Below are positions 6,273-42,168 of a stretch of 44,805 bases of DNA, one piece after another. This DNA comes from a virus. The stretch lies in the IMG/VR virus record IMGVR_UViG_3300045988_165656; one strand, 5' to 3'. The position numbers and the translations under genes were made by a program. Every line of letters starts with the position of its first letter. Within the stretch, counting starts at the first letter, position 1. The notes under the pieces were generated by a model, which was not told where the DNA came from, ran no database searches, and worked only from the letters and a program-made list of their open reading frames with translations.

Positions 6273-6284
6273 ATTCTCACATCC

Positions 6285-6823: not shown

Positions 6824-6851
6824 TTATGCTGCCCTCCAATTGTAAATTTTT

Positions 6852-7505: not shown

Positions 7506-7508
7506 GTG

Positions 7509-8643: not shown

Positions 8644-8648
8644 TTACA

Positions 8649-9176: not shown

Positions 9177-9182
9177 CGCTCC

Positions 9183-9596: not shown

Positions 9597-9609
9597 GTTT
9601 GGTTACTCC

Positions 9610-10881: not shown

Positions 10882-10883
10882 GT

Positions 10884-11498: not shown

Positions 11499-11512
11499 TT
11501 ATCTCACCTCAC

Positions 11513-12004
11513 TTAACCGGTGTAGTTATAAGTAATAACTGTTCCGCCTGTGACATCCTCGCCCATTGTCTTATTCCAGCTATCAGCTTTTATAATTGCA
11601 TTCCATTGTTCTTCTGTACCTCTAAAGTAGATATTAGCCAAGCTTCTGCAATATTGAAACGCAAAATTTCCGATGGCTCTAACACTCTTTGGAATCGTAA
11701 TAGCTGCTAAATTGCCGCAATCTTGAAACGCATAATCGTCGACTATTGTGACACCTTCTGGAATAGACACTTTTGTCACTTCGTTCGATACCGTGTCAGC
11801 AGGCCAAATGACTTCTTGCGTCGTCGGTTTTTCTGCAACAGACGTGATTTCGTCAATCACGTCCGAAACAGTGATACCTTTCGATTCTTTTCCACTCAAC
11901 GCCGCATAAATGTTTTTCAGTGCTCCGACTTTGTTATATGCGTCGGAAACTTTTCCCAATTTTGCAGACAGAGCATTTAACGATTTTACATTTGACTTAC
12001 TCAT
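11513..12004 (-). CDS. BspA-type leucine-rich-repeat protein (moron between portal and protease)
   Basis: C-terminal half IPEGVTIVDDYAFQDCGNLAAITIPKSVRAIGNFAFQYCRSLANIYF matches the BspA-like LRR pattern. ATG at 12004 follows SD aaggtg. Confidence 0.7.
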   Translation of the reverse strand: MSKSNVKSLNALSAKLGKVSDAYNKVGALKNIYAALSGKESKGITVSDVIDEITSVAEKPTTQEVIWPADTVSNEVTKVSIPEGVTIVDDYAFQDCGNLAAITIPKSVRAIGNFAFQYCRSLANIYFRGTEEQWNAIIKADSWNKTMGEDVTGGTVITYNYTG

Positions 12005-13262
12005 TATTTTCACCTTCATCTTGTTTTTCATCGTCATCATCATTCTGGTCGTCTCCAGAACCTCCAGTTTGGTACTGTTTTGCGTATTCTACATTTACGT
12101 AGTTCAGAGACTGCATTCGTACACCTTCTAACTCAGGCAACGGTCTCAAACCAAAAGCAACACGCTTTTCATTTTCGTAAATGGAACCACTGTCACCAAG
12201 TAATCTCACCATCTCCAACGTCTGGTCTACACTCATGAAAATAAGGTCTTTAGGATAAAACTGAATCTTATTTCCAAATGACCGCTCTCTCGGAGTAAAC
12301 AGAGATCGCGTGAATCCTTGTGACATTGCAATGATTAGAGGCTCTAGCGTTTTCTGATAGAAAGCTTCGTATTGTTCTTTGGTATAATCACCCGTCAGAA
12401 TACAAAGCGGAACACCGAAATGACGAAGGATTTTCTCATCAATAAATTTCAGAGTTGCTTCATCGACTAACTGAACATCTCTCGTAATTGGAATAAATTC
12501 ACTCGTAATATCGAGTGGCAAGAATCCACTTTCTGAATTCTGCAGTTTCTGTTCCAATTCTTTCAATGCTGCTTCAGTTTTGCCTCCATCAATCATTGAC
12601 TTAAACTTGACAACACCGTTGATTGCGCAGCTTGACATCATTGCCTTTGACAAATTGTGCAAAAGCAAATAGTTCAAATTCAGCGTTTTTAGAAGTGCCT
12701 CGTTATCAGGTTGACCTTGCTCATTGCCGCCCATATACTCATTGACTGAATATTTGTAGCGGATATGAATGACATCTGAATATGCTAACGTGGTTTCAAA
12801 ATTATTTGCAAAAGTAAATTTCACATAGAGCGTGTCAGAGGCATCCTGGATGAAATCTACCTGCGTAGGCTGTATTGGATATAGGCCTGTGTATTTTCTC
12901 TTCTCAGTGCCATCCTTGTCTGTCCAAACGTAATATGTTGGAATGATAAACGAGTTGTAGTTGAAGAAGAGCTGCCAAACAATTTTCTCAATGAATTCTG
13001 ACGTTGTCATAATTTCATTTGGTGCATTCAAAACAGTTTGGATGTCGCTGTTCACAGGACTTACATCGCAACCAGATGCTCTGACATGTTGAGGTGTCAG
13101 CTTTTTCATTTCACTTACGATGCAATTTATCGCCTGTTGGACAACGTCACTGGCATAAATATCATCACCAAACTGAGAAAATATCGGAGTAAACCCATTT
13201 AGCATATCCGCATACTCGGTTTTAACTTTAGGCTTTCGCCTCAATTTATCTAACCATCCCAA
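11997..13262 (-). CDS. Portal protein (HK97 family)
   Basis: 421 aa with a portal-typical N-terminus and an acidic C-terminal tail. Lies between the terminase and the protease. Confidence 0.9.
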   Translation of the reverse strand: MGWLDKLRRKPKVKTEYADMLNGFTPIFSQFGDDIYASDVVQQAINCIVSEMKKLTPQHVRASGCDVSPVNSDIQTVLNAPNEIMTTSEFIEKIVWQLFFNYNSFIIPTYYVWTDKDGTEKRKYTGLYPIQPTQVDFIQDASDTLYVKFTFANNFETTLAYSDVIHIRYKYSVNEYMGGNEQGQPDNEALLKTLNLNYLLLHNLSKAMMSSCAINGVVKFKSMIDGGKTEAALKELEQKLQNSESGFLPLDITSEFIPITRDVQLVDEATLKFIDEKILRHFGVPLCILTGDYTKEQYEAFYQKTLEPLIIAMSQGFTRSLFTPRERSFGNKIQFYPKDLIFMSVDQTLEMVRLLGDSGSIYENEKRVAFGLRPLPELEGVRMQSLNYVNVEYAKQYQTGGSGDDQNDDDDEKQDEGENNE

Positions 13263-13295
13263 TCAATTCACCGCCTTTCATTCCAAATACATCGT

Positions 13296-13829
13296 TTAGA
13301 CGAGCATTACGTAGCCTTCAAATGCCTCATCAGAGGTAATCACGACGTTTGTACCAACTACCTGAACATCAACGAGGGCGATACCATAATTTGAGCCGCT
13401 CTTTCTCATTACAACAGCAGGAACCTGACCATTTGCAGCAGTGGTAAATGTGTCACTAGTCCAATTGTTAGTAGTGAAAGTTACCTTTGTAGGTGCTTTC
13501 AGACCGTTCAGCTTTGTTTTGAGTGCAGTCGTAAAGTCCTCAGTAGACAGGCCCTTACCTGTTTCCTTGTCGACCTTATTCGTGAATGCTGAATCAGTAC
13601 TCTTCACAAAGTTGCTGTCATTCGTGAGCTGACTCGTCTTTGTGGGTACAGCAGGGATTGCAGCAGAAGTGATGAAGCCAGAATCATTTGTCAGATCGCT
13701 CGTCTTCGTAGGTACGTCAGGAATAGCGGTTTTCTTCGCATAGTCATTCTGAATCTCAGTGAAATTGTCATTGATCTTACCAATTTCCTCTGCAATGAAA
13801 CCACCGTTTTTGATTGTCTGCATAGCCAT
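13296..13829 (-). CDS. Fibre-like repeat protein
   Basis: Tandem repeat IPDVPTKTSDLTNDSGFIT / IPAVPTKTSQLTNDSNFV, plus VDKETGKGLSTEDFT. Both motifs are common in phage fibre proteins. Confidence 0.5.
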   Translation of the reverse strand: MAMQTIKNGGFIAEEIGKINDNFTEIQNDYAKKTAIPDVPTKTSDLTNDSGFITSAAIPAVPTKTSQLTNDSNFVKSTDSAFTNKVDKETGKGLSTEDFTTALKTKLNGLKAPTKVTFTTNNWTSDTFTTAANGQVPAVVMRKSGSNYGIALVDVQVVGTNVVITSDEAFEGYVMLV

Positions 13830-13844
13830 AATAATTTCCTCCTG

Positions 13845-14315
13845 TTAGTTTAACTTGATGCCAATAATCTTTGTTATTGGTCTATCGCTGAATGATGGCA
13901 GGTAGCGCCCAGATGCGTTTGTTTTGATGCCAGCATAAACATTATTGCTGAACTTCAATTGCGTCTTAGAGCTGACCCGAGCGTTACACATGTACAAATT
14001 GCATCCTTCCATAGTTGAGAAATCTGATTCACAGTTCATCACCTTAAACACGGTTCCAACTGCAATTGAATCGATTCGCTGCCAACATGATGCACCTTCT
14101 CGCTGAATCATGATTCCATCAAACTTTGTGATGTCATCTGTCAATGTTATCGACACTGTGCTTCCAGAATCTTTTGAAGGAATAGTTTTGGAACCTTCAA
14201 AAAGAACTTTATAGCTGATTGGTTTATATGTCAGCTTGGCACTCAATTCAGAGAAATTAGAATTGATTCCCGAAATAAAATTCTTCAAGGTGGTTCCCAT
14301 TTTGAAAACTGTCAT
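13845..14315 (-). CDS. Hypothetical protein (N-terminus related to that of the 13296-13829 product)
   Basis: 156-aa ORF tightly abutting its neighbours. Shares the INxNFxE N-terminal motif. Confidence 0.4.
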   Translation of the reverse strand: MTVFKMGTTLKNFISGINSNFSELSAKLTYKPISYKVLFEGSKTIPSKDSGSTVSITLTDDITKFDGIMIQREGASCWQRIDSIAVGTVFKVMNCESDFSTMEGCNLYMCNARVSSKTQLKFSNNVYAGIKTNASGRYLPSFSDRPITKIIGIKLN

Positions 14316-17779: not shown

Positions 17780-18145
17780 TCACCAACTTTCTGTATTGAA
17801 CATGCCTTTTGCTTTTGCCAAAAGCTCAGAGGCTCGAATGCGATTTCGCATCGGTTCTTCTTCATCATTCATGATTTTTGTCCAAAATCCTTGTATCTCA
17901 GCAATCGATGCGATGTTATGTTTTACACACTCAGCAACCTTTTGGGTGTAATTTTGTGCAACCTCAGCGTTAAGTTGTGTAATATATTCCTGTACATCGC
18001 GCCTTTTGAGTAATTTTGCTGCACTTGTTCTCGCTGAAGCAGGTTTATATCCAGCTTTGATTGCTGCTTGTGCTTTATCGCCTTTGCATTCTCCAATGAG
18101 GTATTGACAAAATAAAATTTGCTTTTGATTCAGCATTTGTCTCAC
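17780..18145 (-). CDS. Terminase_2-type small-subunit-like DNA-binding protein
   Basis: LNQKQILFCQYLIGECKGDKAQAAIKAGYKPASARTSAAKLLKRRDVQEYI matches the N-terminal HTH signature of Terminase_2-family TerS proteins. Confidence 0.7.
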   Translation of the reverse strand: MRQMLNQKQILFCQYLIGECKGDKAQAAIKAGYKPASARTSAAKLLKRRDVQEYITQLNAEVAQNYTQKVAECVKHNIASIAEIQGFWTKIMNDEEEPMRNRIRASELLAKAKGMFNTESW

Positions 18146-19002
18146 CCGGTTTCATTCGTGTATTTCTTATCGATCCAACCTGTAACCGCTCCATTTTGTT
18201 TTGCACTGATTCTGAATCTGCCATTGATGATTTTTCCATCTGTCACATAGTAGAATCCTGTCAGAACATTCGCTCTTTTCTTGGCATCACTTGATGCGAA
18301 CAGTTCCATGTGGTCCAATTGAATCTTGTAACCTGCTGCAATTTTACTTGTGCTTGCCACGCCGTGTGTAGTAACACTAGCTTTCTTCGTCCAAAATCCA
18401 TTCCTACCAGCTTTCTTGATCGCTGTCGGATAGTCAAAATAGCACTCGTTGATGTCTACATTTCCAGCAATACCATAAACCTTGCCTGTGCTGGATTTCT
18501 GCCAGATACCATACTGACCCGAATATGTGCACTTTGTGTTATACTGAGCAACCCAAACTGCATAACGTTTCCGAATGTCATCAGTGAAGTATGTACTCAA
18601 AAAAGACTTACTCGTGTACAATCCGACCCAATAACCTGCATTCTCAAGAACATCAAAGAACGCTTTCGCAATAGAAGAGCATTTTGCTTTACCAAGTGCA
18701 AACTGTTTCTTTTCCTCGATGTCATAATAGATCGGAAACTCAAACGTCTTACCGGCAATTACCTTCAGGCAAACAGCAGCTTCTTGTTTGGCTTCAGCTT
18801 CACTCATAGCGTAACTGTACCAATATGCTCCACAAGGAATACTATTGGATTTGCATCCTGCATAGTTATTTTCGAATTGCTGGTCTTTCTGTGAAATCTC
18901 TTTGCCGTAACCTGCGCGGATAATGGCAAACTTTACGCCATCTGCTTTCACATGAGACCAATTCACATTTCCTTGATGTTTGGAGACGTCAATTCCTTTC
19001 AT
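18142..19002 (-). CDS. Endolysin: GH25 muramidase with a C-terminal SH3-like wall-binding domain
   Basis: MKGIDVSKHQGNVNWSHVKADGVKFAIIRAGYG is the GH25 N-terminal signature. The C-terminal ~90 aa ends NGRFRISAKQNGAVTGWI. Confidence 0.9.
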   Translation of the reverse strand: MKGIDVSKHQGNVNWSHVKADGVKFAIIRAGYGKEISQKDQQFENNYAGCKSNSIPCGAYWYSYAMSEAEAKQEAAVCLKVIAGKTFEFPIYYDIEEKKQFALGKAKCSSIAKAFFDVLENAGYWVGLYTSKSFLSTYFTDDIRKRYAVWVAQYNTKCTYSGQYGIWQKSSTGKVYGIAGNVDINECYFDYPTAIKKAGRNGFWTKKASVTTHGVASTSKIAAGYKIQLDHMELFASSDAKKRANVLTGFYYVTDGKIINGRFRISAKQNGAVTGWIDKKYTNETG

Positions 19003-19003
19003 G

Positions 19004-19231
19004 TCAATTCTCCTTTTCTAAGTCTTCGATTCGATGATTTGCAACCTTAATTTGCTCCTCATCACGTGTCAATCGTTCTTCGATCTTGAATGTTCTTTCG
19101 ATCAGATTGTTATGCTTGTTCACACGCTTTTCCAATTGTTCAATTCGATATGCTGTCAGCTTATTTCCACCGTAAACAGTCAAAATCGTACCGATCAATG
19201 TAATGACACTTACCGCTATTTCTGTACTCAT
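19004..19231 (-). CDS. XhlA-like membrane protein (lysis accessory)
   Basis: 75 aa with one N-terminal TM helix followed by a coiled coil. Sits between the holin and the endolysin. Confidence 0.6.
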   Translation of the reverse strand: MSTEIAVSVITLIGTILTVYGGNKLTAYRIEQLEKRVNKHNNLIERTFKIEERLTRDEEQIKVANHRIEDLEKEN

Positions 19232-19497
19232 TCTTCTTTTCCTAACTGCTTGTAGATTTGGTTTCCGTAAACTGCTGTACCTGCACAGAGAATCCCCTGC
19301 ACGATTCCAGAGAATATTCCGTCAAGCGATAAACCATAAAGGCTGATCGTATAAAGCGCACTCAGGACGACACCAGATATGCCCAGGAGCATCGGAATAT
19401 ATTTGTTCTTAACCATATCGGCATCACTAAAAATCTTACCAATTACGACTAATGCCGGAATCAGAATCAACATTTCAGGCCGAACATAATCAGTCAT
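19228..19497 (-). CDS. Holin (phi LC3-like family)
   Basis: ATG at 19497 follows SD gaggtg. About 89 aa with multiple TM helices and a charged C-terminus (NQIYKQLGKEE). Confidence 0.7.
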   Translation of the reverse strand: MTDYVRPEMLILIPALVVIGKIFSDADMVKNKYIPMLLGISGVVLSALYTISLYGLSLDGIFSGIVQGILCAGTAVYGNQIYKQLGKEE

Positions 19498-19521
19498 CGT
19501 TATCACCTCATCTCTAATAAT

Positions 19522-19550
19522 ATTATACCGAAATAGTGTCATATTTTACA
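19522..19550 (-). promoter_or_regulatory. Candidate promoter of the lysis-packaging-morphogenesis operon
   Basis: On the minus strand: TGTAAA, 17 nt, TATAAT, about 25 nt upstream of the holin SD. Confidence 0.4.
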
Positions 19551-20791: not shown

Positions 20792-21178
20792 TTATAAGAA
20801 CAATTCATAGATTACATCGTCGGCAAAAATGAGATACTTCAATCGGTTTATTAGTCTTCGTTTGTTACGGCTAATCGTTGTTACGGTCGTGTCAAAATAT
20901 TCTGCTACTGCTTCACGAGTCTGATTCTCAAAATATATCATTGGAATAATATCATAGTAGAGATCATCGTATAGTTCCTTCAAGGCATTATCCACAATGT
21001 CGACAAATTTCTTTGCTGTACCATCTTCGCTATATGATTTCTTCAGCTCATTGTAGTTTTTCAGAATCTGTTCAGTTTTCTGAAATGCACTCTGTCGATT
21101 GTCTTTCATTAGTCCCGACATTTTCAACTTGGCGATTGTACAATTCACTGTTTCTTGAATAATTTCACTTACTTCCAC
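20792..21178 (-). CDS. Sigma-70 region-4-like / ArpU-RinA-type late transcription regulator
   Basis: C-terminal IYFENQTREAVAEYFDTTVTTISRNKRRLINRL looks like a sigma region-4 HTH. Likely start is GTG at 21178 after SD gaaggtg (the ORF-track start at 21211 is a TTG). Confidence 0.55.
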   Translation of the reverse strand: MEVSEIIQETVNCTIAKLKMSGLMKDNRQSAFQKTEQILKNYNELKKSYSEDGTAKKFVDIVDNALKELYDDLYYDIIPMIYFENQTREAVAEYFDTTVTTISRNKRRLINRLKYLIFADDVIYELFL

Positions 21179-21180
21179 AT

Positions 21181-21415
21181 TATCACCTTCTTTCACAAAA
21201 TGTGGTGTCAAGTCAGCTTATATAATATATCTATAATAATATATATTCTATTATATATACGTCGAAAAATTTCACCGTCGAAAAAAGTTAACGCTGGAGT
21301 ATATATAAAATGAGCACTTTAAGCTGAATTGCGGAATTGAAACCCCTATTATGCGGTCCCAGTTAGCTTTTCACCGATTCAGCTTAAATCGATTTAAGCT
21401 GACTTTGTTGAATTT
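21181..21415. repeat. Left copy of a diverged inverted duplication of regulatory DNA (partner at 40238-40457)
   Basis: The reverse complement aligns by eye with 40238-40457. Shared blocks are aattcaacaaagtcagc, caattccRcaattcaRcttaaaRYgctcattttatatata, cgtcgaaaaatttc, ataatatatatt, cttgacttgacac and gaaagaagg. Confidence 0.7.
21380..21401. promoter_or_regulatory. Perfect 22-bp palindrome
   Basis: cagcttaaatc|gatttaagctg is an exact reverse-complement pair. It contains two copies of the TTAAGCTG motif that recurs in this gap. Confidence 0.55.
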
Positions 21416-21581: not shown

Positions 21582-21983
21582 TCAACCTGAATTCAACCTG
21601 ACTTTCGCAATGCCTGCATTTTTCATCATTCTTCGACAAATCGGGCAAGGTTCCGCCGCAATCACTTTTCCGTTTTCTTCGCCGTAAAGGTAGAGCGTAG
21701 AGCCAATCATATCCTTGCGAGCAGCCGAGATCATCGCATTCATTTCAGCATGCACGCTTTCGCAGTCACCATAATCACCATCATTGTGCTCATGACCAAG
21801 TCTTTTGCAGGTACCTCCGTCACAACAATTCGCTTCACCTCGAGGTGAGCCATTATATCCTGTTGCGATGATCTCATCATTCTTGACTATCACCGCTCCA
21901 TACTGTCTGCGCGTGCATGTTGATCGCTTACTGACGGCTGCTGCAATGCCAAGATAATATTCTTCGATTGTAGGTCTGTTCAT
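21582..21983 (-). CDS. dCMP (deoxycytidylate) deaminase
   Basis: Zinc motifs VHAEMNA and PCPICRRMM. 133 aa, ComEB/T4-cd-like. Confidence 0.9.
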   Translation of the reverse strand: MNRPTIEEYYLGIAAAVSKRSTCTRRQYGAVIVKNDEIIATGYNGSPRGEANCCDGGTCKRLGHEHNDGDYGDCESVHAEMNAMISAARKDMIGSTLYLYGEENGKVIAAEPCPICRRMMKNAGIAKVRLNSG

Positions 21984-23635
21984 TAGATTTTCTCCAATAC
22001 AGTGTTGCCGACAACGAGTACATCTGTACCACTTGTAATCCAGCTCTTTACTGCTACTTCTGTCGATTCAATGATCGGGTTGTTGTGCAAGTTGAAGCTC
22101 GTATTGATGAGCGCCTTCTTGCCAGTAAGAAGCTGATAGATTGAGAGTACTTTCCAGATGAACGGATCTTCATTCTGAGAGACGATTTGCGGTCTTGCTG
22201 TATGATCTACGTGGCAAGCAGCAGGATAGCTCTCGATGAATTCTGGCGTACAATCGAACGTCATCGTCATATGCTTTGCACTGTCTCTGCCACCATCAAG
22301 CTCCAAGAACAGGTCATCCGCTACTTCTTCGCGGCATACAGGAGCGAAAGGCATAAACTCTGTACGACCAAGCTTGTCATTGAGCCAAGTGTTGGTTTCC
22401 TTCGTGTCGCAATTATACAGAATGCTACGATGGCAAAGAGCACGAGGACCGAATTCCATCTTACCCTTGACGAGGCAAACGATCTTATTTTCACTGAGCA
22501 TCTCTGCGATTGTCCGTGCCAATTCATTATCGTTAGCAATTCTACGGCAAGAATACTTGTCAGACTCACCTACGATCAAACGTTCATTTGCAATTGTGCC
22601 ACATTGATTCGGGCTGATTTTTGCTTCAGGAAGATTGTCAGACAGAATAGCGTATGCTGCACCAATTGCATTGCCTTCGTCTCCCATTGCAGGGCACACA
22701 TAGACGTTTTTGAAGATACCCAATTCTTTGATTCTCTGATTGATTTTGACATTTGCAAATAATCCACCAGACAAATAGCAATTATAGTCATATTCGTCAA
22801 CGTTTTCGTATATCCACTTGCAAACACACTGCTCTGCATATTCCTGAACTGTAGCAGCGATGTCCTCACGTGTTGCTCCTGCTGCTTTCAGATTTTCAAC
22901 GAGCGAATAAGTTGCTTTCTTCAGTTTGAGGAAATCACCGAAATCATAGATGTGAGATTCTTCCACCATCTGTTCTTCTTCCTCTGTCAGAGGTACATTG
23001 CGAGATTCTACTTCCAAAGAATAGAATTCTCTCAAATATTTTGGCTGACCAAATGCTGCAAGGCCTGTGATTTTTCCTTCATGCTTGAGCTCTGTGAAGC
23101 CTAATGCACCGGTCACAAATTGATACACCAAACCAACTGAAGCTCTGAGCGGCAAAGATACGTTGACTTCATCATTACCGTATCGGTAAATGATTCCGCT
23201 GTAACCATCGCCAAAACCATCAGACGTGATGAGATAGTCACCATTTTTTGGATTGTCATAAAATGCGACTGTAGCAAAAGCATGAGCCCAGTGATGAGGC
23301 ACGTGAATGATGTCTTCAAAATCAATTGCCGTATGCTCGCGAAAGTAGTTGCGAATCACATCATGCCAATTGTCACTGTGAAGATTGTATTTTTTACCGT
23401 ACTTCTCCAAATAGTCTGTGCTCATGTTCTCATAGTGAGATACTGCGAGAGCTTCGAAATTGTATACACCAGAGAGCTCACAGCACTTCACAGCCGCATC
23501 GAAAGGAAGCTCTTTGGTATTCTTTTCACCATTCAGACGTTCCTGAGAGATCGCTGCAAGCACTCCTCGTTTGCTAGATACAACGCACGCTGAACTGTTA
23601 TGACTGAATGACATTCCAAGATAAAATTTTTCCAC
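21983..23635 (-). CDS. NodU/CmcH-family carbamoyltransferase
   Basis: 550 aa. N-terminus LGMSFSHNSSACVV...ISQERLNGEKNTKELP and HHWAHAFATVAF are family hallmarks. C-terminal carbamoyltransferase domain is present. Confidence 0.85.
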   Translation of the reverse strand: MEKFYLGMSFSHNSSACVVSSKRGVLAAISQERLNGEKNTKELPFDAAVKCCELSGVYNFEALAVSHYENMSTDYLEKYGKKYNLHSDNWHDVIRNYFREHTAIDFEDIIHVPHHWAHAFATVAFYDNPKNGDYLITSDGFGDGYSGIIYRYGNDEVNVSLPLRASVGLVYQFVTGALGFTELKHEGKITGLAAFGQPKYLREFYSLEVESRNVPLTEEEEQMVEESHIYDFGDFLKLKKATYSLVENLKAAGATREDIAATVQEYAEQCVCKWIYENVDEYDYNCYLSGGLFANVKINQRIKELGIFKNVYVCPAMGDEGNAIGAAYAILSDNLPEAKISPNQCGTIANERLIVGESDKYSCRRIANDNELARTIAEMLSENKIVCLVKGKMEFGPRALCHRSILYNCDTKETNTWLNDKLGRTEFMPFAPVCREEVADDLFLELDGGRDSAKHMTMTFDCTPEFIESYPAACHVDHTARPQIVSQNEDPFIWKVLSIYQLLTGKKALINTSFNLHNNPIIESTEVAVKSWITSGTDVLVVGNTVLEKI

Positions 23636-23647
23636 GATAATTCCTCC

Positions 23648-24118
23648 TCAATATTCGATCCAATGTGATTTGAACCAGTGTGTCCAGTTTCGATCAGTCA
23701 ATTTGGTTTTTACTACTCCGAAACCTACACCGATAGCGTATGACGATTCAATAACCTCTCCGTTTCCAACGTAAATACCAACGTGATTAGGCATGTATAC
23801 CAAAACACCTGCTATATTTGGAATGGTGTCAATTGTTCCATTTTCCGTTGCGAGTTTGAACAGGTCATCGGTTGCAATATCCTCTGACACTTCTGCACAT
23901 TTCTTCACTAGGCCGATACAATCGAAACAATATATGTACCGACCGATGAAGCTTTTAAGATATTCAACAACTGCGTGATTGTAACGTTTTGGGGCAATTT
24001 GGATTCCTTTGTTTATGACTTCTTCGCTGATGATTTCACCAGAAGCTCCCCATACAAACAAAGTGTTGATTTTCTCTAACCGTTTAGCGGTTAGAGCAAC
24101 TTCTCCGCTCGTTCTCAT
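23648..24118 (-). CDS. NlpC/P60-fold (papain-like Cys-His) protein with no signal peptide or wall-binding domain
   Basis: FDCIGLVKKC (catalytic Cys context) and PNHVGIYVGNGEVIESS (His context). 156 aa. Overlaps the ThyX-like stop. Confidence 0.6.
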   Translation of the reverse strand: MRTSGEVALTAKRLEKINTLFVWGASGEIISEEVINKGIQIAPKRYNHAVVEYLKSFIGRYIYCFDCIGLVKKCAEVSEDIATDDLFKLATENGTIDTIPNIAGVLVYMPNHVGIYVGNGEVIESSYAIGVGFGVVKTKLTDRNWTHWFKSHWIEY

Positions 24119-24834
24119 ATAAATTCCTCCATGTACGGTAATTTTTCAACCCATTCGCAGAACGTCCGCCATTCGTCAAGCTTATGGGTCTTTCTCGAAT
24201 GGTACATGTTCAACAGCACTTCATAATTCAATTGTACCGTTGCACGCTGGTTATAACTTGACGGTAAAAGCTGAATCATCTGCCACCAGTATTTTTTATC
24301 TTTTGTTTGTAAATACATATTCTTGTTACTGTTCAATACCGCCACGGTTATTTGTAATAACGAATAAGGGTGTAAAAGTATATCGTATTCACCAACCGAT
24401 AATTTAGCGTGAGTATTACCAGTAGTTTCTAAATGTTCATGCGAAAAATCATCTATAGTAAATTCTTTTTTGTGAATCGTGTGCATCGTTGAACAAGAAT
24501 TGCGAACAGTGCCAACCTTATATGTATCGAATTCCTTCCACCAATATAACGGTGCTGTGATGTCAACTGTCACATTTATCATACGAAGGAATTTTCTATG
24601 GTCTGTACCAGCTTTGACGAGTTTCTTCATCCGAGCAAGGTCATTTTCACCGACAATAAGATGAGCTGTATTTTCATTACAAACGCAACGGTGAACACAA
24701 TTTTTAGGACATTCTTCATCATACCAAGTGTCGCAAAAATCACTATCCGACTTGTCCCAACTGTTCATTGGATTTCTCATTCCACGAATGGCTGCTTCCC
24801 ATCCGTATACTTCATCATTTTCAATTTGAATCAC
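24115..24834 (-). CDS. ThyX-like (flavin-dependent thymidylate synthase family) protein with a divergent substrate motif
   Basis: DHRKFLRMINVTVDITAPLYWWKEFDTYKVGTVRNSCSTMH and LPSSYNQRATVQLNYEVLLNMYHSRK parallel ThyX blocks. The canonical RHRxxSxxxxSxRY motif is altered. Confidence 0.55.
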   Translation of the reverse strand: MIQIENDEVYGWEAAIRGMRNPMNSWDKSDSDFCDTWYDEECPKNCVHRCVCNENTAHLIVGENDLARMKKLVKAGTDHRKFLRMINVTVDITAPLYWWKEFDTYKVGTVRNSCSTMHTIHKKEFTIDDFSHEHLETTGNTHAKLSVGEYDILLHPYSLLQITVAVLNSNKNMYLQTKDKKYWWQMIQLLPSSYNQRATVQLNYEVLLNMYHSRKTHKLDEWRTFCEWVEKLPYMEEFI

Positions 24835-25526: not shown

Positions 25527-25946
25527 TTATACTCCTGTACTCCCAAAGCCGTTGCTTCCACGTTCCTCAATATCCTCTGTGACAAAATCAGCAATAACAA
25601 CTGGTGTAATTACCAATTGGCCAATTCTGTCACCGTTATGTACAATGAAGGATTCTCTACCTACGTTTGTAACGATCGCGTGAATTTCTCCACGGTAACC
25701 AGAATCAATTGGAGGAAGCTCACAAACAATTCCCTTTGTGCTCAAGCCGCTTCTTGGAAATACGCATGCAGCATAACCATCAGGGAGAATCAATCCCAAA
25801 CCGAGAGGAATCTTACGAGTGTGATTCGGAGGAATTACAATTGTTCCTTCACCTGTGATATGAGCATGTACATCTGCACCTGCATCGTTTGCGTGAGCTC
25901 TAAGCGGCAGTTTCTCATAGCCGTAGTCCAACACCTTAATCTTCAT
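25527..25946 (-). CDS. dut: Trimeric dUTPase-family nucleotidohydrolase
   Basis: AGADVHA, PRSGLS, IDSGYRGEI and C-terminal RGSNGFGSTG motifs. Confidence 0.9.
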   Translation of the reverse strand: MKIKVLDYGYEKLPLRAHANDAGADVHAHITGEGTIVIPPNHTRKIPLGLGLILPDGYAACVFPRSGLSTKGIVCELPPIDSGYRGEIHAIVTNVGRESFIVHNGDRIGQLVITPVVIADFVTEDIEERGSNGFGSTGV

Positions 25947-26739
25947 ACTTTTCCTCCTTCAAAATGCCATAGTCTTCACATGCCAGAACCAAATCAATTT
26001 TTGGAGTTTCACTTTTTTCAACAATTTGCTCCAAAATGAACTTGTAGCACATCAACTTTTCAAAATCGACCGAAATTTGAAGAGTTGGAATTGTAGCAGC
26101 CGCTCTTACGATGTCATCATAATTGCGTTCATACACGTGCAGACTTACGACTGTATGCGTATATGTGCCACATTCAACGTCCAGTCTTTTGGCGATATAT
26201 TTCTGCAGCTCAGTGAAGAAAATCGTGTCATACGGTAAACCATACCAAACGTCATTGCTGCGCATGATTCCATAACCGTGTAGCTTGCCGTCACGAATGA
26301 GGAACTGCAATGCAATCGTGCAAATCTCATCCTTCGTCTCAATCACACGTTTATTTGGAACATTGAAATTGATAACTGCCCGTCTGCTTGTAGGGTCACT
26401 GCACAAAAGCTGAATGATCTTCTCGACCTGATTGAAACCGTGTCTACCGAAGACAATATCACCATACGCTGAATATGAGGTTACTCCGTCATCCGAGATG
26501 CGACCCCAAAGACCTGCGAATTTGTTTATAAAGCCTACATCATTGCGCCCAAGAGCGTACCAGAGCAGCTCTCCGCAAATGTACGGCTTTGAGATATTTC
26601 TCACGTTGATAACGTTATTATCCAAATTAGTCAGCGTGAATGAATATCCGTTTAGCTCTTTCGTTCCTCTCACTTCGGGTGCATCTACCAAATCGCTACA
26701 AATTTTTTTGTAAATGCTATCCATGTTGTTTGCAATCAT
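25936..26739 (-). CDS. ThyA-family pyrimidine C5 transferase, predicted dCMP-specific (hydroxymethylase or methylase)
   Basis: Aligns without gaps to E. coli ThyA from the catalytic Cys (EICTIALQF) through RSND to GLPYD. Asp replaces the specificity residue Asn177. Confidence 0.75.
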   Translation of the reverse strand: MIANNMDSIYKKICSDLVDAPEVRGTKELNGYSFTLTNLDNNVINVRNISKPYICGELLWYALGRNDVGFINKFAGLWGRISDDGVTSYSAYGDIVFGRHGFNQVEKIIQLLCSDPTSRRAVINFNVPNKRVIETKDEICTIALQFLIRDGKLHGYGIMRSNDVWYGLPYDTIFFTELQKYIAKRLDVECGTYTHTVVSLHVYERNYDDIVRAAATIPTLQISVDFEKLMCYKFILEQIVEKSETPKIDLVLACEDYGILKEEKYED

Positions 26740-26953
26740 GTTTCTTCTCTCCTAACATTTCGTAAATTTTTCTGAATGAGGTCATTTGTGCAATTTCGTT
26801 CATTGTGAATTTCACGTCGAATTCGTCCTCGATAGCGACGATTAAACCGATATGAGCAAGACTGTCCCATCCATCGGTATTTTCTGGTGTAGAATTTTCA
26901 TCTACCTCTACTTTCAGCACTTCGCGAAAGATTTCTTTCAATCGTTCGAGCAT
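26717..26953 (-). CDS. Acyl carrier protein
   Basis: 78 aa, acidic, with the phosphopantetheine-attachment context GWDSLAHIGLIVAIEDEF. Ends in TAG and overlaps the next start. Confidence 0.8.
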   Translation of the reverse strand: MLERLKEIFREVLKVEVDENSTPENTDGWDSLAHIGLIVAIEDEFDVKFTMNEIAQMTSFRKIYEMLGEKKHDCKQHG

Positions 26954-28545
26954 TCAATCACCTCATTTTTTTCAGTATAGTCATCAACGTTTAACATCCA
27001 ACGAGCAACCGAATATTTGGTGAAACCTAACTTTTGGTATATGTCAAGATTTGAGTTGTTTCTGTCGTTTTCGAAAAAAAGTCCTACAACCTGTTTGATA
27101 CCTCTTGATTTGCATTCATCGATGAAAGAATCAAATAATGCAAATTCCAAATCTCGTTTGAGAACTCTACAGCTCATCACCCAAATATCTATGACAGCTG
27201 AATCGTTTTCCATCTTTGCAGAAATAACACTGACTAAACCGTTATCACCAAATTTGTCTTTTAGCTTTGCTGTCAGCGTGAATCTGTTCTCGTTGCGAAG
27301 AACACTCTCGCTGATTTTGTATCCTGTCAAATTGAATTGGTGCGTTTTGTTGATTAGCTGAATAGATCGCTCAATCGTGTCATCGTTTAACATTTCGATT
27401 TTTGCTTGCATGTGCAAACTTTCCAAATATTCGCGATAGTCGGAAAATTTACCTTCGAACGATTGTCTTTCGGCGTTCGCTTTGTACATATCTGCCCTAT
27501 TCAGATCGTCGTTTGTAACGATCGTCGGTTCGAAATACGCTTGCTTATCCAATTCTCTTATTCTCTCGGTGATATCTGCCATGAGTGGCGTTTCAACTCC
27601 GAGCTGTTCATGAACCAGATAACGTTCCGCTTCATTGTCGTCGATGAACACAAAATCAGTAGGTGCAATGCCGACTTCTTCTGATAATCGTTCCAAGTTA
27701 CTAGCTTTGTCGTTCCAATTTGCAAGTATGATAGGAAAATCAGATTCGCCGAGAATTCCTCCAGATGTTCTCAACGCACTCAGAGCAGCATCTTCGTTAT
27801 TCTTCGATATAACATATAACGGCACATTCAAATCCTTGATGTACTGTTGGAACTCTCTGAATGCTCTACCTATAGCATTATCTGCGGCAACATTTACCGT
27901 GCCTTCTCCTGCTAATCCATCCCACAATGTGTTATCCAAATCAATTGCGATGGCTTTTTTATTTTCACCGCAAATAGACTTTATGATATGCAAAATATTC
28001 GAACACAATATTGGAATTGCAGCAACGTCTAACGCATAACCATACATGTACCAATGAGACAGATTGTGCCATTTTTCAAGACCGTAATTCGCAGAAAGCC
28101 AATTGATGTCATTGATATGGAACCAATCGTGACTTGCCGCAAAGTCATAAAACTTCTCATTGAGTTTTGCTAAAAATCTAGATTTGCCTCTAACATCGTA
28201 GCAATCTCGATTTCCTAACAATCGATAAAACGGCATCTCGAAATTATTTTGGATAACATGGCAATCATAATCGTCATGCAACTTCAACCACATTTCTTCA
28301 TACCGATTATATTCGTTGTCCAGTTTTCTCAGGATCTCATCTGGTGAATCTTTCACGTTCGGCTCATAAATTATATTCCTATTTGTAGTGTGAATGTAGA
28401 TGAAATCTGGAGTGAATCCGTGAAAATCACCATACATCGCTGTTTCCCAAAACTTGCCGAAATCGTCCTCGTAAACCTCGTGATGTTCTCCTAAAATTTT
28501 GGCAATATGAGCAGTAGTGGAACCTCCCAAAATAGCTATCTTCAT
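26938..28545 (-). CDS. FkbH-like HAD-IIIC phosphatase/acyltransferase (glyceryl-ACP loading type)
   Basis: IAIDLDNTLWDG, VISKNNEDAA, ANWNDKASNL, FVFIDDNEAER and C-terminal VMSCRVLKRDLE match the FkbH-domain blocks. ATG at 28545 overlaps the upstream stop (ATGA). Confidence 0.85.
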   Translation of the reverse strand: MKIAILGGSTTAHIAKILGEHHEVYEDDFGKFWETAMYGDFHGFTPDFIYIHTTNRNIIYEPNVKDSPDEILRKLDNEYNRYEEMWLKLHDDYDCHVIQNNFEMPFYRLLGNRDCYDVRGKSRFLAKLNEKFYDFAASHDWFHINDINWLSANYGLEKWHNLSHWYMYGYALDVAAIPILCSNILHIIKSICGENKKAIAIDLDNTLWDGLAGEGTVNVAADNAIGRAFREFQQYIKDLNVPLYVISKNNEDAALSALRTSGGILGESDFPIILANWNDKASNLERLSEEVGIAPTDFVFIDDNEAERYLVHEQLGVETPLMADITERIRELDKQAYFEPTIVTNDDLNRADMYKANAERQSFEGKFSDYREYLESLHMQAKIEMLNDDTIERSIQLINKTHQFNLTGYKISESVLRNENRFTLTAKLKDKFGDNGLVSVISAKMENDSAVIDIWVMSCRVLKRDLEFALFDSFIDECKSRGIKQVVGLFFENDRNNSNLDIYQKLGFTKYSVARWMLNVDDYTEKNEVIECSND

Positions 28546-29018
28546 CAAATCATCCTTTCGATCTCGTTAACTACCTCATCAACAGTCTTACCTGTGGTGT
28601 CAACAAGAGGAAATAAACACGAATCTGAAAGTGTGACATAGTCACGATTGATATTTTTCACTAATTCGAAATCTTCGACGTATTCGTCACCTCTAGCTTC
28701 GAGTCGTTTCTTCAATTCAGATTCGCTCGCCGTCAAGATAAACACTTTACAACCGTAGCTGTCCAACAAAGTAAATAACATGTCCTCAACAGTATCATCG
28801 AATTTTGGTTTGCGACCGAAATATCTTGGATAGATGAGCTCGCTGATGAAACAACGATCATGTACCATGTTATCTGGCACCATTACTTCCATATACTTTC
28901 TTATTGTACCGTCACCGTCATGAGTAAGTCTGATGATGTCACAATGCAAGCGATTGGCCAATTTTTCAACAACTGACGTTTTACCTGTACAATCGCATCC
29001 TTCGATCAAAATTCTCAT
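28545..29018 (-). CDS. Thymidylate-kinase-like dNMP kinase
   Basis: P-loop ILIEGCDCTGKTS (compare Tmk EGxDGxGKT). ATG at 29018 follows SD gaggagg. Confidence 0.65.
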   Translation of the reverse strand: MRILIEGCDCTGKTSVVEKLANRLHCDIIRLTHDGDGTIRKYMEVMVPDNMVHDRCFISELIYPRYFGRKPKFDDTVEDMLFTLLDSYGCKVFILTASESELKKRLEARGDEYVEDFELVKNINRDYVTLSDSCLFPLVDTTGKTVDEVVNEIERMI

Positions 29019-29189
29019 TTGTTCCTCCTCACGGTTCATTTCTTGTGAATCTCACAACTGCAACAAATTTTTTCCGGCTGAGATCATATGTCATATGCCA
29101 GTCAATCACCGCTACCTTATTGGATAACTGTGCTAACTGTGCTGCAAGATTGACTCTGTTCATAGCCTCAAAGCTGATACATTCGACCA

Positions 29190-31076: not shown

Positions 31077-31276
31077 TTACCGTCACTCCGTTGCCATTTA
31101 TTTGAGCAGTACACACATTTTGTTGATGTGCCACGTCTCAAGTTATCACCTCTTACTGCTTTCGTTCTTCCACAAATATCACACATGCAATTCCAATATG
31201 CTCGTTTCTTGTTGTCGAGAAAACTAAATTCAAAAACGTGCCAATGGCCAAAAGTTTGGCCGCTTATATCTATCAT
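31073..31276 (-). CDS. Small zinc-ribbon protein
   Basis: 67 aa with CMCDICG...CVYC. Overlaps both neighbours. Confidence 0.45.
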   Translation of the reverse strand: MIDISGQTFGHWHVFEFSFLDNKKRAYWNCMCDICGRTKAVRGDNLRRGTSTKCVYCSNKWQRSDGK

Positions 31277-33216
31277 GTTTGCATCACTCCAAACTGAGTT
31301 AGTCTATCTTTTGCCATTTTGATGTACCATTCTCTATCGAGTCTCCAACCAACAGTTGCTTTTTTCACATCATCGTTCACGATGAAGCAATGTTCTGGAG
31401 TATTTGCAAATTTTTCAATAATTGCACCGTCAGTCTTTTGCTTTCCAATAAAACCGTCTGTCGTTTTTACTGAAGCGAATACTCTGAATGTTCTATCGTT
31501 CAATTTGACATTTCCATGACTATCGGCGGAGTGTGTTTCATAATATTTACACCCATTACACTCGCAGCGGTTAATGTCGATTTCTCCAAATTTATCCGGA
31601 TTATGAACGTTTGGATTCGAACACGAATATAAATGGAAACGACTGTCACCCAAATCTTTCATGTATTTACATGTTTCATCTTTGTAATCACTAGGATATT
31701 TTGACAGTGCATGCCAGCTGTTCTTAAACTTACCTGAAAGCTTGACGATCTTTTGGAACATAATGAGATCGTTGCATTCAGCGATCGTCTTTTCGACTGG
31801 AATACCGATTGTCATATAGTCAACCATTGCTTTATTGACAATTGGCAAATCATAATCCAATGTATTTTGCTTTTTGACGTATGAACCTTTTGATTTGTAG
31901 TGTCCATCACCATCGACAACAACATAATTGTTAACGTCTTTTTGGAAAATACGTCGATATTCATCAAATTCCATATTCAAACCAGTACGCTGTTCCCATT
32001 CATAAACGATGTCGTCAATGATTTCAAACCATTTGTTTTCATCTTTGTCGTCAGGCATTCTAATCAAAATACCATCGGTGTTCGACTGAATGATTTCTGC
32101 ATATGGTTCCAATTTTTCCATCAAATCCAACAGCAGTAACTGTCCAAAAATACAAATGTTATTTGCCATCAACGGATCGTATAACTGGTTGTTTTTATCT
32201 TTGAGACAACCGTATGTACCATTCAACAACCATTTCAACGGTGCTTGCAATGGATTCTTTTCCGCTTTGTATTTTATTCGTTGATGGTAAATATCAATGA
32301 ACTTTTGAGGGTCCTTAATGTTTCTAGAATGCAAATTGTATTGGATCATAAGCGAAGGATATAGGCTTCTAACGTCCATATTGATGAAATAACCTTCAGC
32401 GACATATTTCTTGCGAGCCGAGTGAATACCACCCCAACCGAATAGTGTTTCTACACCTGCGACTAAAACTGTCAACGATTTTGAATAATCTCGATTGTTC
32501 ACATCTTTATACCAATCTACAACATTGGTATATTTGGATATTCTCAATGTATCTGGGAACGAAATGTCAAATTCGTCTCCTCTTGATTCACGAGGTCTGT
32601 GAGCATCAAGAATCATTGCTGACAACTGTGCTTTCGTTCTGCTGATATTTGACATCGGCAAACCGAACATTTTTATCATGCCGATTTGGGCATCGAAATC
32701 GTCTTTCCGTGAGAAGAAAACTTCGATAGTTTGCTCAACATCATGTCGGCAATATTTGACGGTTTCTTCGATCTCACTTTTAGTCAACTTTCTATCAATG
32801 TCGAACGGCACAGATGTTTCTTTGATATCATTTCCCATAAAACCTTCAAGTGACTTAAGGCCTCTGTCACTACGATACATCACGTCGTAATTGTACATTT
32901 GGAATTTTCTGAATAGGCCACTGAATTGCCATCCATATTTTCCTTTAGCGATAATGAAATCATTGACTTCCTTAGGATTGAATCCACAAAGAATTGCTTT
33001 CAGAATATATTGGTCATAGTGGTTGTTATTATAACCAACCCAAATTTGATTCTTGTGAGCATCGTAATATTCTTGGAGCTTCTCTTTGTCGTTGATAATC
33101 ACCACTTCTGATTTTTCGTAGATATTGATAATTGCAACGAGCCAATCTTCTTTGAACACCTCAAAATCGTAGAAATTGAGAATTGAACTCACCTCCTGAC
33201 TAACCCACCTTCCCAC
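31273..33216 (-). CDS. Family-B-like DNA polymerase with 3'-5' exonuclease domain (start codon uncertain)
   Basis: Exo motifs FYDFEVF, NNHYDQYIL and YCRHDVEQT. Polymerase motifs DVRSLYPSLM and QSNTDGILI. There is no ATG in the first ~100 codons. Confidence 0.8.
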   Translation of the reverse strand: MGRWVSQEVSSILNFYDFEVFKEDWLVAIINIYEKSEVVIINDKEKLQEYYDAHKNQIWVGYNNNHYDQYILKAILCGFNPKEVNDFIIAKGKYGWQFSGLFRKFQMYNYDVMYRSDRGLKSLEGFMGNDIKETSVPFDIDRKLTKSEIEETVKYCRHDVEQTIEVFFSRKDDFDAQIGMIKMFGLPMSNISRTKAQLSAMILDAHRPRESRGDEFDISFPDTLRISKYTNVVDWYKDVNNRDYSKSLTVLVAGVETLFGWGGIHSARKKYVAEGYFINMDVRSLYPSLMIQYNLHSRNIKDPQKFIDIYHQRIKYKAEKNPLQAPLKWLLNGTYGCLKDKNNQLYDPLMANNICIFGQLLLLDLMEKLEPYAEIIQSNTDGILIRMPDDKDENKWFEIIDDIVYEWEQRTGLNMEFDEYRRIFQKDVNNYVVVDGDGHYKSKGSYVKKQNTLDYDLPIVNKAMVDYMTIGIPVEKTIAECNDLIMFQKIVKLSGKFKNSWHALSKYPSDYKDETCKYMKDLGDSRFHLYSCSNPNVHNPDKFGEIDINRCECNGCKYYETHSADSHGNVKLNDRTFRVFASVKTTDGFIGKQKTDGAIIEKFANTPEHCFIVNDDVKKATVGWRLDREWYIKMAKDRLTQFGVMQT

Positions 33217-41528: not shown

Positions 41529-41699
41529 TTAGTGGCGGTTACGCATGTGTTCCTTGTGTTTCTCATACGCTTCTGGGTGAGTTACATAAAAGACAGTGGA
41601 CATCGAACAACCAAAATACTTGCAAATGAACTTATACGTGAATCTATTCACATGCATTTCGATCATCTTACTTTTTTCTTTAGTCGTGTACCGTCTCAT
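41529..41699 (-). CDS. Small HTH-like protein
   Basis: ATG at 41699 follows SD gaaggagg. 56 aa with the segment FICKYFGCSMSTVFYV. Confidence 0.45.
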   Translation of the reverse strand: MRRYTTKEKSKMIEMHVNRFTYKFICKYFGCSMSTVFYVTHPEAYEKHKEHMRNRH

Positions 41700-42168
41700 T
41701 TTTCTTAGCCTCCTTCTTTGCTGCACGAGCAGCTTTGCGATCCGCTTTCACTTTGTCACATGCCTTCTTGTACTTTTCACCGTCACGTTCGAAGTTCTCT
41801 TCAGTAGACACATACCGTACTCTGTAGCCATTAGCTCTGAGATCGCGGTAGAAATCGTTGCGATTTGCATATTCACTGCGTACTACTTCGAACTCATTGG
41901 TTTCAGTATTTCTTACACTTGCAACAAGCAGTTTCTTTTTCTTCTGAACAGATTCATCATTCTTAGAAGCTTCAGATTCGCTCTCAGGCACACTTTCTTC
42001 TTCGGTAAGTAAAGTATCTACGAAAGTTTCTTCTTCGTCCTGAGACTCGTTCTGAGCGTTCTGAATAGCTTCGATGAGTTCAGTCTTCTTCATGCTCCAC
42101 CAGTTCTTGATCTTCAGCTCTTTTGCTGTTGCCTTGAGTTCTTTGCTTGTCATGTTTTCGATATTCAT
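41680..42168 (-). CDS. Hypothetical protein with a Rho_N/SAP-like N-terminal motif
   Basis: SKELKATAKELKIKNWWSMKKTELIEAI, followed by an acidic linker and a basic C-terminus. Confidence 0.45.
   Translation of the reverse strand: MNIENMTSKELKATAKELKIKNWWSMKKTELIEAIQNAQNESQDEEETFVDTLLTEEESVPESESEASKNDESVQKKKKLLVASVRNTETNEFEVVRSEYANRNDFYRDLRANGYRVRYVSTEENFERDGEKYKKACDKVKADRKAARAAKKEAKKNETVHD

Follow-up and report, generated by a model that had tools for sequence, protein, structure and literature searches.

A loader and carrier gene pair in a temperate phage

The viral contig IMGVR_UViG_3300045988_165656, analysed over its full length of 44,805 nucleotides (nt) and referred to here as the window, corresponds to a temperate siphophage of ~44.8 kb with integrase, Hol44 holin, GH25 lysin and terminase genes, and carries on its minus strand two overlapping genes for an FkbH-type loader and a discrete acyl carrier protein (ACP). 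The identity of this pair, the operon in which it lies, its inheritance across sister phages and the reaction that it may serve are considered here.

26938-28545, minus strand: FkbH-type loader, 535 amino acids (aa) from ATG, TIGR01686 above cutoff
26717-26953, minus strand: discrete acyl carrier protein, 78 aa, pI 4.8, contains GWDSLAHIGLIVAIEDEF

A first-pass annotation, made from the sequence alone, had described the larger protein as showing every FkbH block and the 78-aa frame as ACP-like and overlapping it, and these descriptions hold: the genes share 16 nt on the same strand, and the loader translation contains IDLDNTLW, SKNNED, NWNDK, FIDDNEAER and SCRVLKRDLE, that is, all five quoted blocks (an in-frame TTG at 28548 gives an alternative product of 536 aa). 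The profile searches proposed with that annotation placed the FkbH, HAD-IIIC and PP-binding models above their curated cutoffs, at levels that chance does not explain: TIGR01686 (FkbH domain) matched the loader with E=1.9e-58 and 198.2 bits (cutoff 146.65) over profile positions 3-320 of 323, TIGR01681 (HAD-IIIC) scored 39.4 bits (cutoff 35.75), and PF00550 (PP-binding) matched the ACP with E=6.4e-8 and 33.2 bits (gathering cutoff 20.8). Public pipelines already label the two products 'FkbH-like protein' and 'acyl carrier protein', and the pair is a further member of a known enzyme family.

The loader is composed of an FkbH_N domain (residues ~1-190), a HAD-IIIC phosphatase domain (~197-340) and a GNAT-fold acyl-transfer domain (~370-535). 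The N-terminal ~190 residues had been said to resemble nothing recognisable, a view that has to be abandoned: PF21211 (FkbH_N) matches them weakly, and residues 2-323 align strongly to Bacteroides fragilis BF1531 (PDB 3slr, E=9e-29). Structure prediction, which had been suggested for this part of the protein, leads to the same assignment, as a Foldseek search with the AF2 model (pLDDT 81.6) superposes the N-terminal and HAD domains together on 3slr with a TM-score of 0.78. The C-terminal domain adopts a GNAT fold (RimI-like, TM ~0.7) and bears the conserved Cys459, supplied by the SCRVLxR motif. HAD phosphatase motifs I to IV (DxDxT; S/T; K; DD) are intact, and D202, D204, T206, S247, K248, K280, D302, D303 and C459 are invariant when 34 homologues from phages and bacteria are aligned; the corresponding codons lie at 27940-27942 (Asp202), 27934-27936 (Asp204), 27706-27708 (Lys280), 27637-27642 (Asp302/303) and 27169-27171 (Cys459).

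In the ACP, the phosphopantetheine-attachment residue is Ser31 (codon 26861-26863), in an Asp-Ser-Leu context, and the Trp-Asp-Ser stretch (W29, D30, S31) is invariant across eight aligned carrier proteins located after FkbH genes. Searches of ~30 non-structural open reading frames (ORFs) of the window gave no match to a phosphopantetheinyl transferase (PPTase) of the ACPS or Sfp families, in line with what the first-pass annotation had stated, and none was found among the genes that co-vary with FkbH, ACP and the NlpC/P60 gene described below; a host PPTase would thus be needed.

Both genes are under purifying selection, with dN/dS of 0.08-0.11 for FkbH and 0.05-0.06 for the ACP (0.108 and 0.060, respectively, for the window compared with a phage lineage 79% identical to it), and their GC and GC3 are those of the adjoining genes. 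Many samples contain contigs of ~41-45 kb that encode the same FkbH and ACP proteins, which fall into clusters of 35-63 near-identical members. The window therefore holds an intact loader and carrier with complete catalytic residues, and because of purifying selection, composition, overlapping frames and recurrence across samples, both are functional resident phage genes rather than a recent bacterial fragment. The reaction stated for the family is the transfer of a glyceryl group from D-1,3-bisphosphoglycerate onto a discrete ACP (PMC3625739), and, judging from family membership, the phage pair most probably makes glyceryl-S-ACP from 1,3-bisphosphoglycerate in the same way.

The pair is embedded in a predicted cytosine-modification module

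The pair lies between genes for the synthesis and conditioning of modified nucleotides, followed on the same strand by a second group of genes:

28545-29039, minus strand: dNMP-kinase homologue, 164 aa (TIGR00041, PF02223, phrog_761)
25936-26739, minus strand: thymidylate-synthase (TS) homologue, predicted dCMP C5-hydroxymethylase (MilA match, Asp171)
25527-25946, minus strand: dUTPase or dCTP-deaminase-like enzyme, nucleotide-pool conditioning (PF00692 80.8 bits, PF22769)
23648-24118, minus strand: stand-alone cytoplasmic NlpC/P60 domain, 156 aa (PF00877)
21983-23635, minus strand: NodU/TobZ-type O-carbamoyltransferase (CarbT), 550 aa, predicted 5-hydroxymethylcytosine (5hmC) carbamoyltransferase (PF16861 169 bits, PF02543 108.6 bits, phrog_1601)
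21582-21983, minus strand: dCMP deaminase (PF00383 70.5 bits)

The best PDB match of the TS homologue is the CMP 5-hydroxymethylase MilA (108 bits), true thymidylate synthases scoring at most 59 bits. Its catalytic Cys140 is encoded at 26320-26322, and Asp171 (26227-26229) occupies the position of Asn177 in Escherichia coli ThyA, where the alignment of GLPYD with GLPFN corresponds to an Asn177-to-Asp change. An Asp at position 177 switches TS homologues from dUMP to dCMP and marks cytosine-modified phage contigs (PMC8670742). Where the E. coli enzyme has His147, residue 141 of the window protein is a Thr, and position 147 is the second TS residue that the MetaGPA study found to differ between modified and unmodified contigs. 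CarbT has both domains of its family, and its gene, in the same orientation as that of the TS homologue, is 2.3 kb away from it; in combination with such a TS homologue, a phage enzyme of the NodU/TobZ type was shown to convert 5hmC into 5-carbamoyloxymethylcytosine (5cmC), acting both on DNA and on 5hmdCTP (PMC8670742).

The genes are tightly packed. The D5 primase-helicase, orf53, dNMP kinase, FkbH, ACP, TS and dUTPase-like genes form a chain with overlaps of 1-23 nt, in which the kinase stop codon and the FkbH start share 1 nt, and a second chain (orf105, phrog_6721, NlpC/P60, CarbT and dCMP deaminase) is joined by overlaps or by a 12-nt gap. Shine-Dalgarno-like motifs precede the operon genes, GC and GC3 are uniform, and dN/dS between the window and the 79%-identical lineage amounts to 0.102 for the TS homologue and 0.154 for CarbT; promoter and terminator scans of the region gave counts equal to those in shuffled controls, and megablast of the region against annotated phages gave no match.

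The location of the pair inside a phage nucleotide module, as first described, is thus correct, the module itself being a more particular one: this 'nucleotide operon' is a T4-like 5-hydroxymethyl-dCMP pathway coupled to a 5hmC carbamoyltransferase, and therefore a known DNA-hypermodification module. Judging from these gene assignments, the DNA of this gut phage probably contains a chemically modified base in place of cytosine. The accompanying statement that no partner lies nearby stands for the classical ones, as no polyketide synthase (PKS), ketoacyl synthase (KAS), KAS-III, ligase or methoxymalonyl tailoring partner was found among ~30 scanned ORFs of the window; it does not stand for the NlpC/P60 gene, a co-varying candidate ~2.5 kb downstream.

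A papain-like protein beside the carbamoyltransferase

The NlpC/P60 gene is located directly upstream of CarbT, with a gap of 12 nt, and this arrangement is found again in a divergent lineage (L108, 60% identity). The catalytic residues of its product are Cys67 (23918-23920), His112 (23783-23785) and Glu124 (23747-23749); D66, C67 and H112 are invariant among the homologues aligned, Glu124 is kept, and dN/dS is 0.111. The AF2 model is of high confidence (pLDDT 95.9), and its Foldseek neighbours are the peptidoglycan DL-endopeptidases Acd24020, RipB, CwlO and LytE. Outside the phage clade, the nearest relatives are ~39% identical, ~245 aa long and equipped with PG_binding_1, SH3 or CW_7 domains; relatives encoded by annotated phages bear the name endolysin, and the public source label of the window protein is 'cell wall-associated NlpC family hydrolase'. 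The protein nevertheless consists of the catalytic core only: it has no wall-binding domain, signal peptide or transmembrane segment and a pI of 6.1, against 9.3 for the true lysin of the window, which adjoins the holin in the lysis cassette (18142-19542).

An identity as an acyltransferase of the LRAT type was considered and rejected, since both fold and sequence are nearer to hydrolases and only the Cys-His chemistry is shared; no LRAT/HRASLS-type acyltransferase appeared in the top 50 Foldseek PDB matches. Any acyl-transfer role is consequently argued from this Cys-His chemistry, co-variation and position, by which the protein is a candidate acyl-transfer or thioesterase partner of the loader and carrier.

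Bacterial relatives and origin of the pair

The phage clade of FkbH proteins is small (78-100% identity). Bacterial matches number 6297, and thousands of full-length ones from Clostridia (such as Ruminococcus and Lachnospiraceae) come nearest, at 44-45% identity. These nearest relatives typically belong to operons in which MBOAT, DHHW/AlgX, FkbH and ACP genes follow one another (L110/111, L214 and L215, with L001 similar; L110 4160-9033, L214 7158-12033, L215 609-4241, L001 7869-13924), so that the polyketide and tetronate framing of the first-pass annotation has to give way to one centred on Clostridia MBOAT-DHHW-FkbH-ACP proteins. The phage ACP is 36-40% identical to the MBOAT-linked ACPs.

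In a survey of 80 bacterial FkbH loci from many phyla, an ACP gene was adjacent in 69, an MBOAT gene lay within 6 kb in at least 43, and none of the 80 had an NlpC/P60 neighbour. By analogy, the MBOAT-DHHW-FkbH-ACP operons look like Dlt-like systems for surface-polymer acylation, with an FkbH loader replacing the DltA ligase; they are widespread and apparently uncharacterised. Neither the window nor its sister phages yielded an MBOAT or DHHW gene. Other partner sets include a MaoC dehydratase with an SDR and a protein of no assigned family (L117/L119), and a dehydrogenase with a pyrophosphatase (L005-7); as FkbH-family pairs have several partner sets, the carrier-bound product appears to be used in varied ways. 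In one locus of the latter set, from a Ruminococcus metagenome-assembled genome (L005, 7147-11192), an NAD-binding dehydrogenase, FkbH, ACP, a 197-aa protein without Pfam match and an inorganic pyrophosphatase adjoin the dcw cluster, with no MBOAT gene.

A 76.7-kb viral contig (L002, IMGVR_UViG_3300037067_006298) also encodes an ACP with an FkbH core that lacks the N-domain, within a cluster at 5453-14038 that runs through SDR, YopX, KAS-III, MaoC, FkbH core, ACP, DegT aminotransferase, hexapeptide acyltransferase, DNA methylase, methyltransferase/GT2 and PAPS-reductase-like genes. It was rejected as a comparable viral context for the pair, being a cluster of the acyl-aminosugar type. Among 50,697 annotated phage records, an FkbH homologue is present in only two unannotated faecal 'Bacteriophage sp.' records, one of which has a bacterial-looking DHHW context. 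No prophage copy that could point to the host was found in species-representative genomes (best match 43% identity), and the large terminase, 48% identical to those of Butyrivibrio phages, hints at a Lachnospiraceae host.

Joint presence and absence across sister phages

A survey of phage genomes for ACP and FkbH pairs had been recommended, and sister phages bearing the pair were indeed found, so that their neighbours could be compared. Genomic contexts collected from ENA, Logan, IMG/VR and JGI provided ~15 informative loci. FkbH, ACP and NlpC/P60 are all present in the window, L003, L008, L009, L004 and L092/93, and all absent from L010/13/94/95, L011, L014/96, L097, L098/196, L197 and L198, which otherwise keep the order kinase, TS, dUTPase, phrog_6721, CarbT and deaminase; no genome among these loci has a partial set. 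All carriers of the trio belong to one narrow phage group, and the trio is confined to phages bearing the 5hmC and carbamoyltransferase module.

This pattern does not correspond to simple shared descent, because the non-carrier lineage of L094 is nested among carriers. Over eight backbone genes, the non-carriers L094/L010 are 88-89% identical to the window, compared with 85-86% for the carriers L004/L093, and the TS and dUTPase of L094 are 93-95% and 97-98% identical to those of L004/L093. Two clean indels, with flanks 82-90% identical, separate the DNA of L093 from that of L094: the first, of ~2 kb, holds the 3' part of the kinase gene, FkbH and most of the ACP gene, while the second, of 475 bp, is exactly the NlpC/P60 gene, in whose place L094 has 4 bp.

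Kinase identity is 65-99% among trio carriers and 46-58% between carriers and non-carriers; the kinase variant may simply be linked to the trio, or may be adapted to a bulkier substrate nucleotide. A clustering of CarbT and hydroxymethylase sequences by trio presence, as a sign of changed substrate, was looked for and not seen.

Acylation of modified cytosine and its alternatives

Built on the observed gene identities, intact catalytic residues, purifying selection, operon coupling and co-variation, the preferred reading is that the pair and the NlpC/P60 protein form a three-component cytoplasmic acylation system acting on 5hmC or 5cmC, a tentative proposal given somewhat less than an even chance of being right, in which the acyl group, the role of the NlpC/P60 protein and the acceptor are all putative. 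It is grounded in the following: the trio is split yet interleaved beside the hydroxymethylase and CarbT genes, with translational coupling; it is inherited in an all-or-none manner and restricted to CarbT phages; and envelope-specific parts have been lost from both captured components. In this model, a host PPTase would activate Ser31 of the ACP, the HAD domain of FkbH would strip the 3-phosphate from D-1,3-bisphosphoglycerate, and Cys459 of the GNAT-like domain would hold the glyceryl group and pass it to the carrier, yielding glyceryl-S-ACP. Translational coupling ties the loader and carrier to the T4-like 5-hydroxymethyl-dCMP pathway ending in the 5hmC O-carbamoyltransferase. Cys67 of the NlpC/P60 protein would then accept the glyceryl group from the carrier and acylate the hydroxymethylated or carbamoylated cytosine on a hydroxyl or amino function, whether in a nucleotide or in DNA, and the outcome would be a second-layer, carrier-protein-dependent hypermodification giving the phage DNA extra protection from host nucleases. 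That virion DNA actually contains a glyceroylated cytosine made in this carrier-dependent way, through a lysin-type NlpC/P60 enzyme repurposed to act on 5hmC or 5cmC, is a narrower claim, possible but doubtful.

Several observations weigh against this proposal. The homology of all three genes points to the cell envelope, as far as sequence relationships go: the nearest bacterial FkbH operons are of the MBOAT-DHHW type, the NlpC/P60 protein has the fold neighbours and phage relatives of wall hydrolases and endolysins, and its top Foldseek matches are devoid of LRAT-type enzymes. Neither the hydroxymethylase nor CarbT tracks trio presence, and, both being alike with and without the trio, the base pathway is unchanged. 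Few independent events underlie the co-variation, the trio having been gained together about once and lost together about once, and that of the kinase may be simple linkage. A nucleotide or DNA acceptor is itself putative, the 5hmC hydroxyl may already carry a carbamoyl group, and, in the MetaGPA supplementary table, PP-binding domains are not enriched in cytosine-modified contigs (2 modified versus 268 unmodified).

Could the pair instead serve the cell envelope? Phage-made acyl-S-ACP would in that case feed the putative Dlt-like MBOAT and DHHW machinery of the host, possibly altering the esterification of wall polysaccharide or teichoic acid during infection, with receptor masking, superinfection exclusion or lysis tuning as possible benefits, and the NlpC/P60 protein would be an additional peptidoglycan endopeptidase that exits via the holin. 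This explanation is favoured by the MBOAT-DHHW-FkbH-ACP operons of the nearest relatives outside phages (44-45% over the full length), the MBOAT genes within 6 kb at 43 or more of the 80 bacterial loci, the DL-endopeptidase fold neighbours, the PG_binding_1, SH3 or CW_7 domains or endolysin annotation of the NlpC/P60 relatives and the public name of that protein. It is the main alternative, though judged unlikely: the phage encodes neither MBOAT nor DHHW, its ACP is just 36-40% identical to the MBOAT-linked ones, the trio occupies two separate sites rather than one inserted block, both of them lying among, and translationally coupled to, nucleotide or DNA-modification genes of the early/replication operon, away from the lysis cassette and the lysogeny region, and the NlpC/P60 protein has neither a wall-binding domain nor the basic charge of the true lysin. 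An acyl-ACP system whose outcome concerns neither DNA nor envelope, with the NlpC/P60 protein as thioesterase or as transferase to another acceptor, appears improbable. It could act as a shunt from 1,3-bisphosphoglycerate to free glycerate that redirects host glycolysis, or acylate a phage or host protein or a small molecule, and it would fit with the ready hydrolysis of thioesters by Cys-His papain-fold enzymes, with the predicted soluble and cytoplasmic nature of all three proteins, and with the varied FkbH partners (MBOAT/DHHW; MaoC, SDR and KAS-III; dehydrogenase and pyrophosphatase). However, it leaves unexplained the restriction of the trio to 5hmC/CarbT phages and its interleaving with their genes, and a plain hydrolytic shunt would need no carrier protein.

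There is also a small probability that the NlpC/P60 protein has nothing to do with the pair, being an extra lysin or a gamma-glutamyl hydrolase linked to it by shared descent only, and that FkbH and ACP use a different phage or host partner. The few gain and loss events sampled, the narrowness of the carrier group and the lack of an NlpC/P60 neighbour at all 80 bacterial FkbH loci are compatible with such a coincidence, whereas the lack of any partial set among the informative loci and the mosaic sister phage nested among carriers, which lost both sites cleanly with flanks 82-98% identical, are hard to reconcile with it. As for a recently captured and non-functional bacterial capsule or lipopolysaccharide fragment, which the first-pass annotation had named as what would overturn its own reading, the abundance of bacterial homologues is the only point in its favour, and it is effectively refuted: the nearest bacterial proteins are ~45% identical, conservation across phage lineages extends down to 78% identity with dN/dS of 0.05-0.11 and intact catalytic residues, and the genes match their neighbours in GC and GC3, share overlapping reading frames with them and recur on dozens of contigs of ~44 kb.

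Significance

DNA hypermodification in phages drives an arms race with restriction and CRISPR, and is a source of tools for epigenomics. To our knowledge, the donors used in DNA modification are all nucleotide-sugars, amino acids, ATP, carbamoyl phosphate or SAM-type cofactors. If cytosine acylation by the trio is real, it would be the first DNA base hypermodification dependent on a phosphopantetheinyl carrier, adding thioester chemistry to DNA decoration and tying DNA modification to host glycolysis through 1,3-bisphosphoglycerate. If the target is the envelope, a widespread Dlt-like MBOAT-DHHW-FkbH-ACP system with a glyceryl loader would come to light, of which the phage takes just the cytoplasmic half. 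No description of FkbH or carrier proteins in phage DNA modification was found in the literature searched, and the arrangement at this locus, a loader and carrier without MBOAT or PKS together with a trimmed NlpC/P60 protein in a 5hmC-carbamoyl operon, matches no partner set among the loci examined or in that literature. Since near-identical natural phage pairs exist with and without the trio, the question is directly testable.

Other features of the window

The phrog_6721 protein (239 aa, 24115-24834, minus strand) belongs to a large, highly conserved phage family of over 8000 homologues in which many residues are invariant. It matched nothing in Pfam, neither sequence nor profile searches turned up a relative in the PDB, and it is found in gut phages of ~40-130 kb with or without a DNA-modification module. 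It was considered as the missing partner of the pair and ruled out, as its family of more than 8000 members includes ~70 viral loci without TS, CarbT or FkbH; a ThyX-like identity is likewise unsupported by Pfam, PDB sequence search or profile search.

A 139-aa ORF between the deaminase and the lysis genes (20792-21211, minus strand), 82-99% identical across sister phages, contains a helix-turn-helix-like stretch in its C-terminal part, TTISRNKRRLINRLKYL, and possibly regulates late genes. The DNA polymerase gene (31273-33216, minus strand) is mosaic among otherwise near-identical phages, its identity to the window being 55-61% in L003 and L094 and 92-97% in L004, L008 and L009, unlinked to trio presence. 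Near the lysogeny region, a 65-aa ORF and a 162-aa Rho_N-domain protein (41529-42168, minus strand) are present in the trio-bearing IMG/VR contig 3300045988_176188 and undetected in the trio-less contig 164467, a single comparison that may be coincidental.

Comparison with known systems

The phage pair resembles the glyceryl-S-ACP synthases of the FkbH/OzmB/Tmn16 type in its TIGR01686 match, HAD motifs, SCRVLxR cysteine, ACP gene immediately downstream and inferred reaction. It differs from them in being phage-encoded within a nucleotide operon, in possessing an extra FkbH_N domain, as in BF1531, and in having as relatives Clostridia envelope-operon proteins rather than actinomycete polyketide enzymes; unlike in the methoxymalonyl-ACP and tetronate pathways, the phage has no PKS, KAS-III or FkbG/I/J/K tailoring enzymes. 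Both proteins have their nearest homologues in the bacterial MBOAT-DHHW/AlgX-FkbH-ACP operons, with a DltB-like MBOAT and a DltD-like SGNH protein, where FkbH is followed by ACP in the same order as in the phage. By contrast, the phage FkbH is ~35 residues shorter at its N-terminus, MBOAT and DHHW are missing, and the pair co-varies with a soluble NlpC/P60 protein, a combination seen at none of the 80 bacterial loci. This third protein shares with NlpC/P60 DL-endopeptidases and endolysins a papain-like fold, a Cys-His-polar triad and lysin-like nearest relatives, but is a catalytic domain alone, near-neutral and without wall-binding module or signal peptide, encoded beside CarbT in the early module rather than in the lysis cassette, and co-inherited with an ACP.

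In the T4 pathway of 5hmC glucosylation, as in those relying on 5hmdU kinases and aGPT-Pplase enzymes, dedicated, co-encoded transferases decorate a hydroxymethyl-pyrimidine that has first been made as a nucleotide, a logic that the window module shares. The donors of the T4 and thymidine hypermodification systems are UDP-glucose, ATP and amino acids, and we know of none among these systems with a phosphopantetheinyl carrier protein. The closest precedent for the operon as a whole is the phage system converting 5hmC into 5-carbamoyloxymethylcytosine (Yang et al., eLife 2021, PMC8670742): no ACP, FkbH, HAD or NlpC/P60 protein is mentioned in that paper, but the Asp177 TS homologue and the NodU/TobZ-type CarbT are common to both, as is the grouping of dUTPase, dCMP deaminase and kinase genes, and the sister phages without the trio resemble its plain members.

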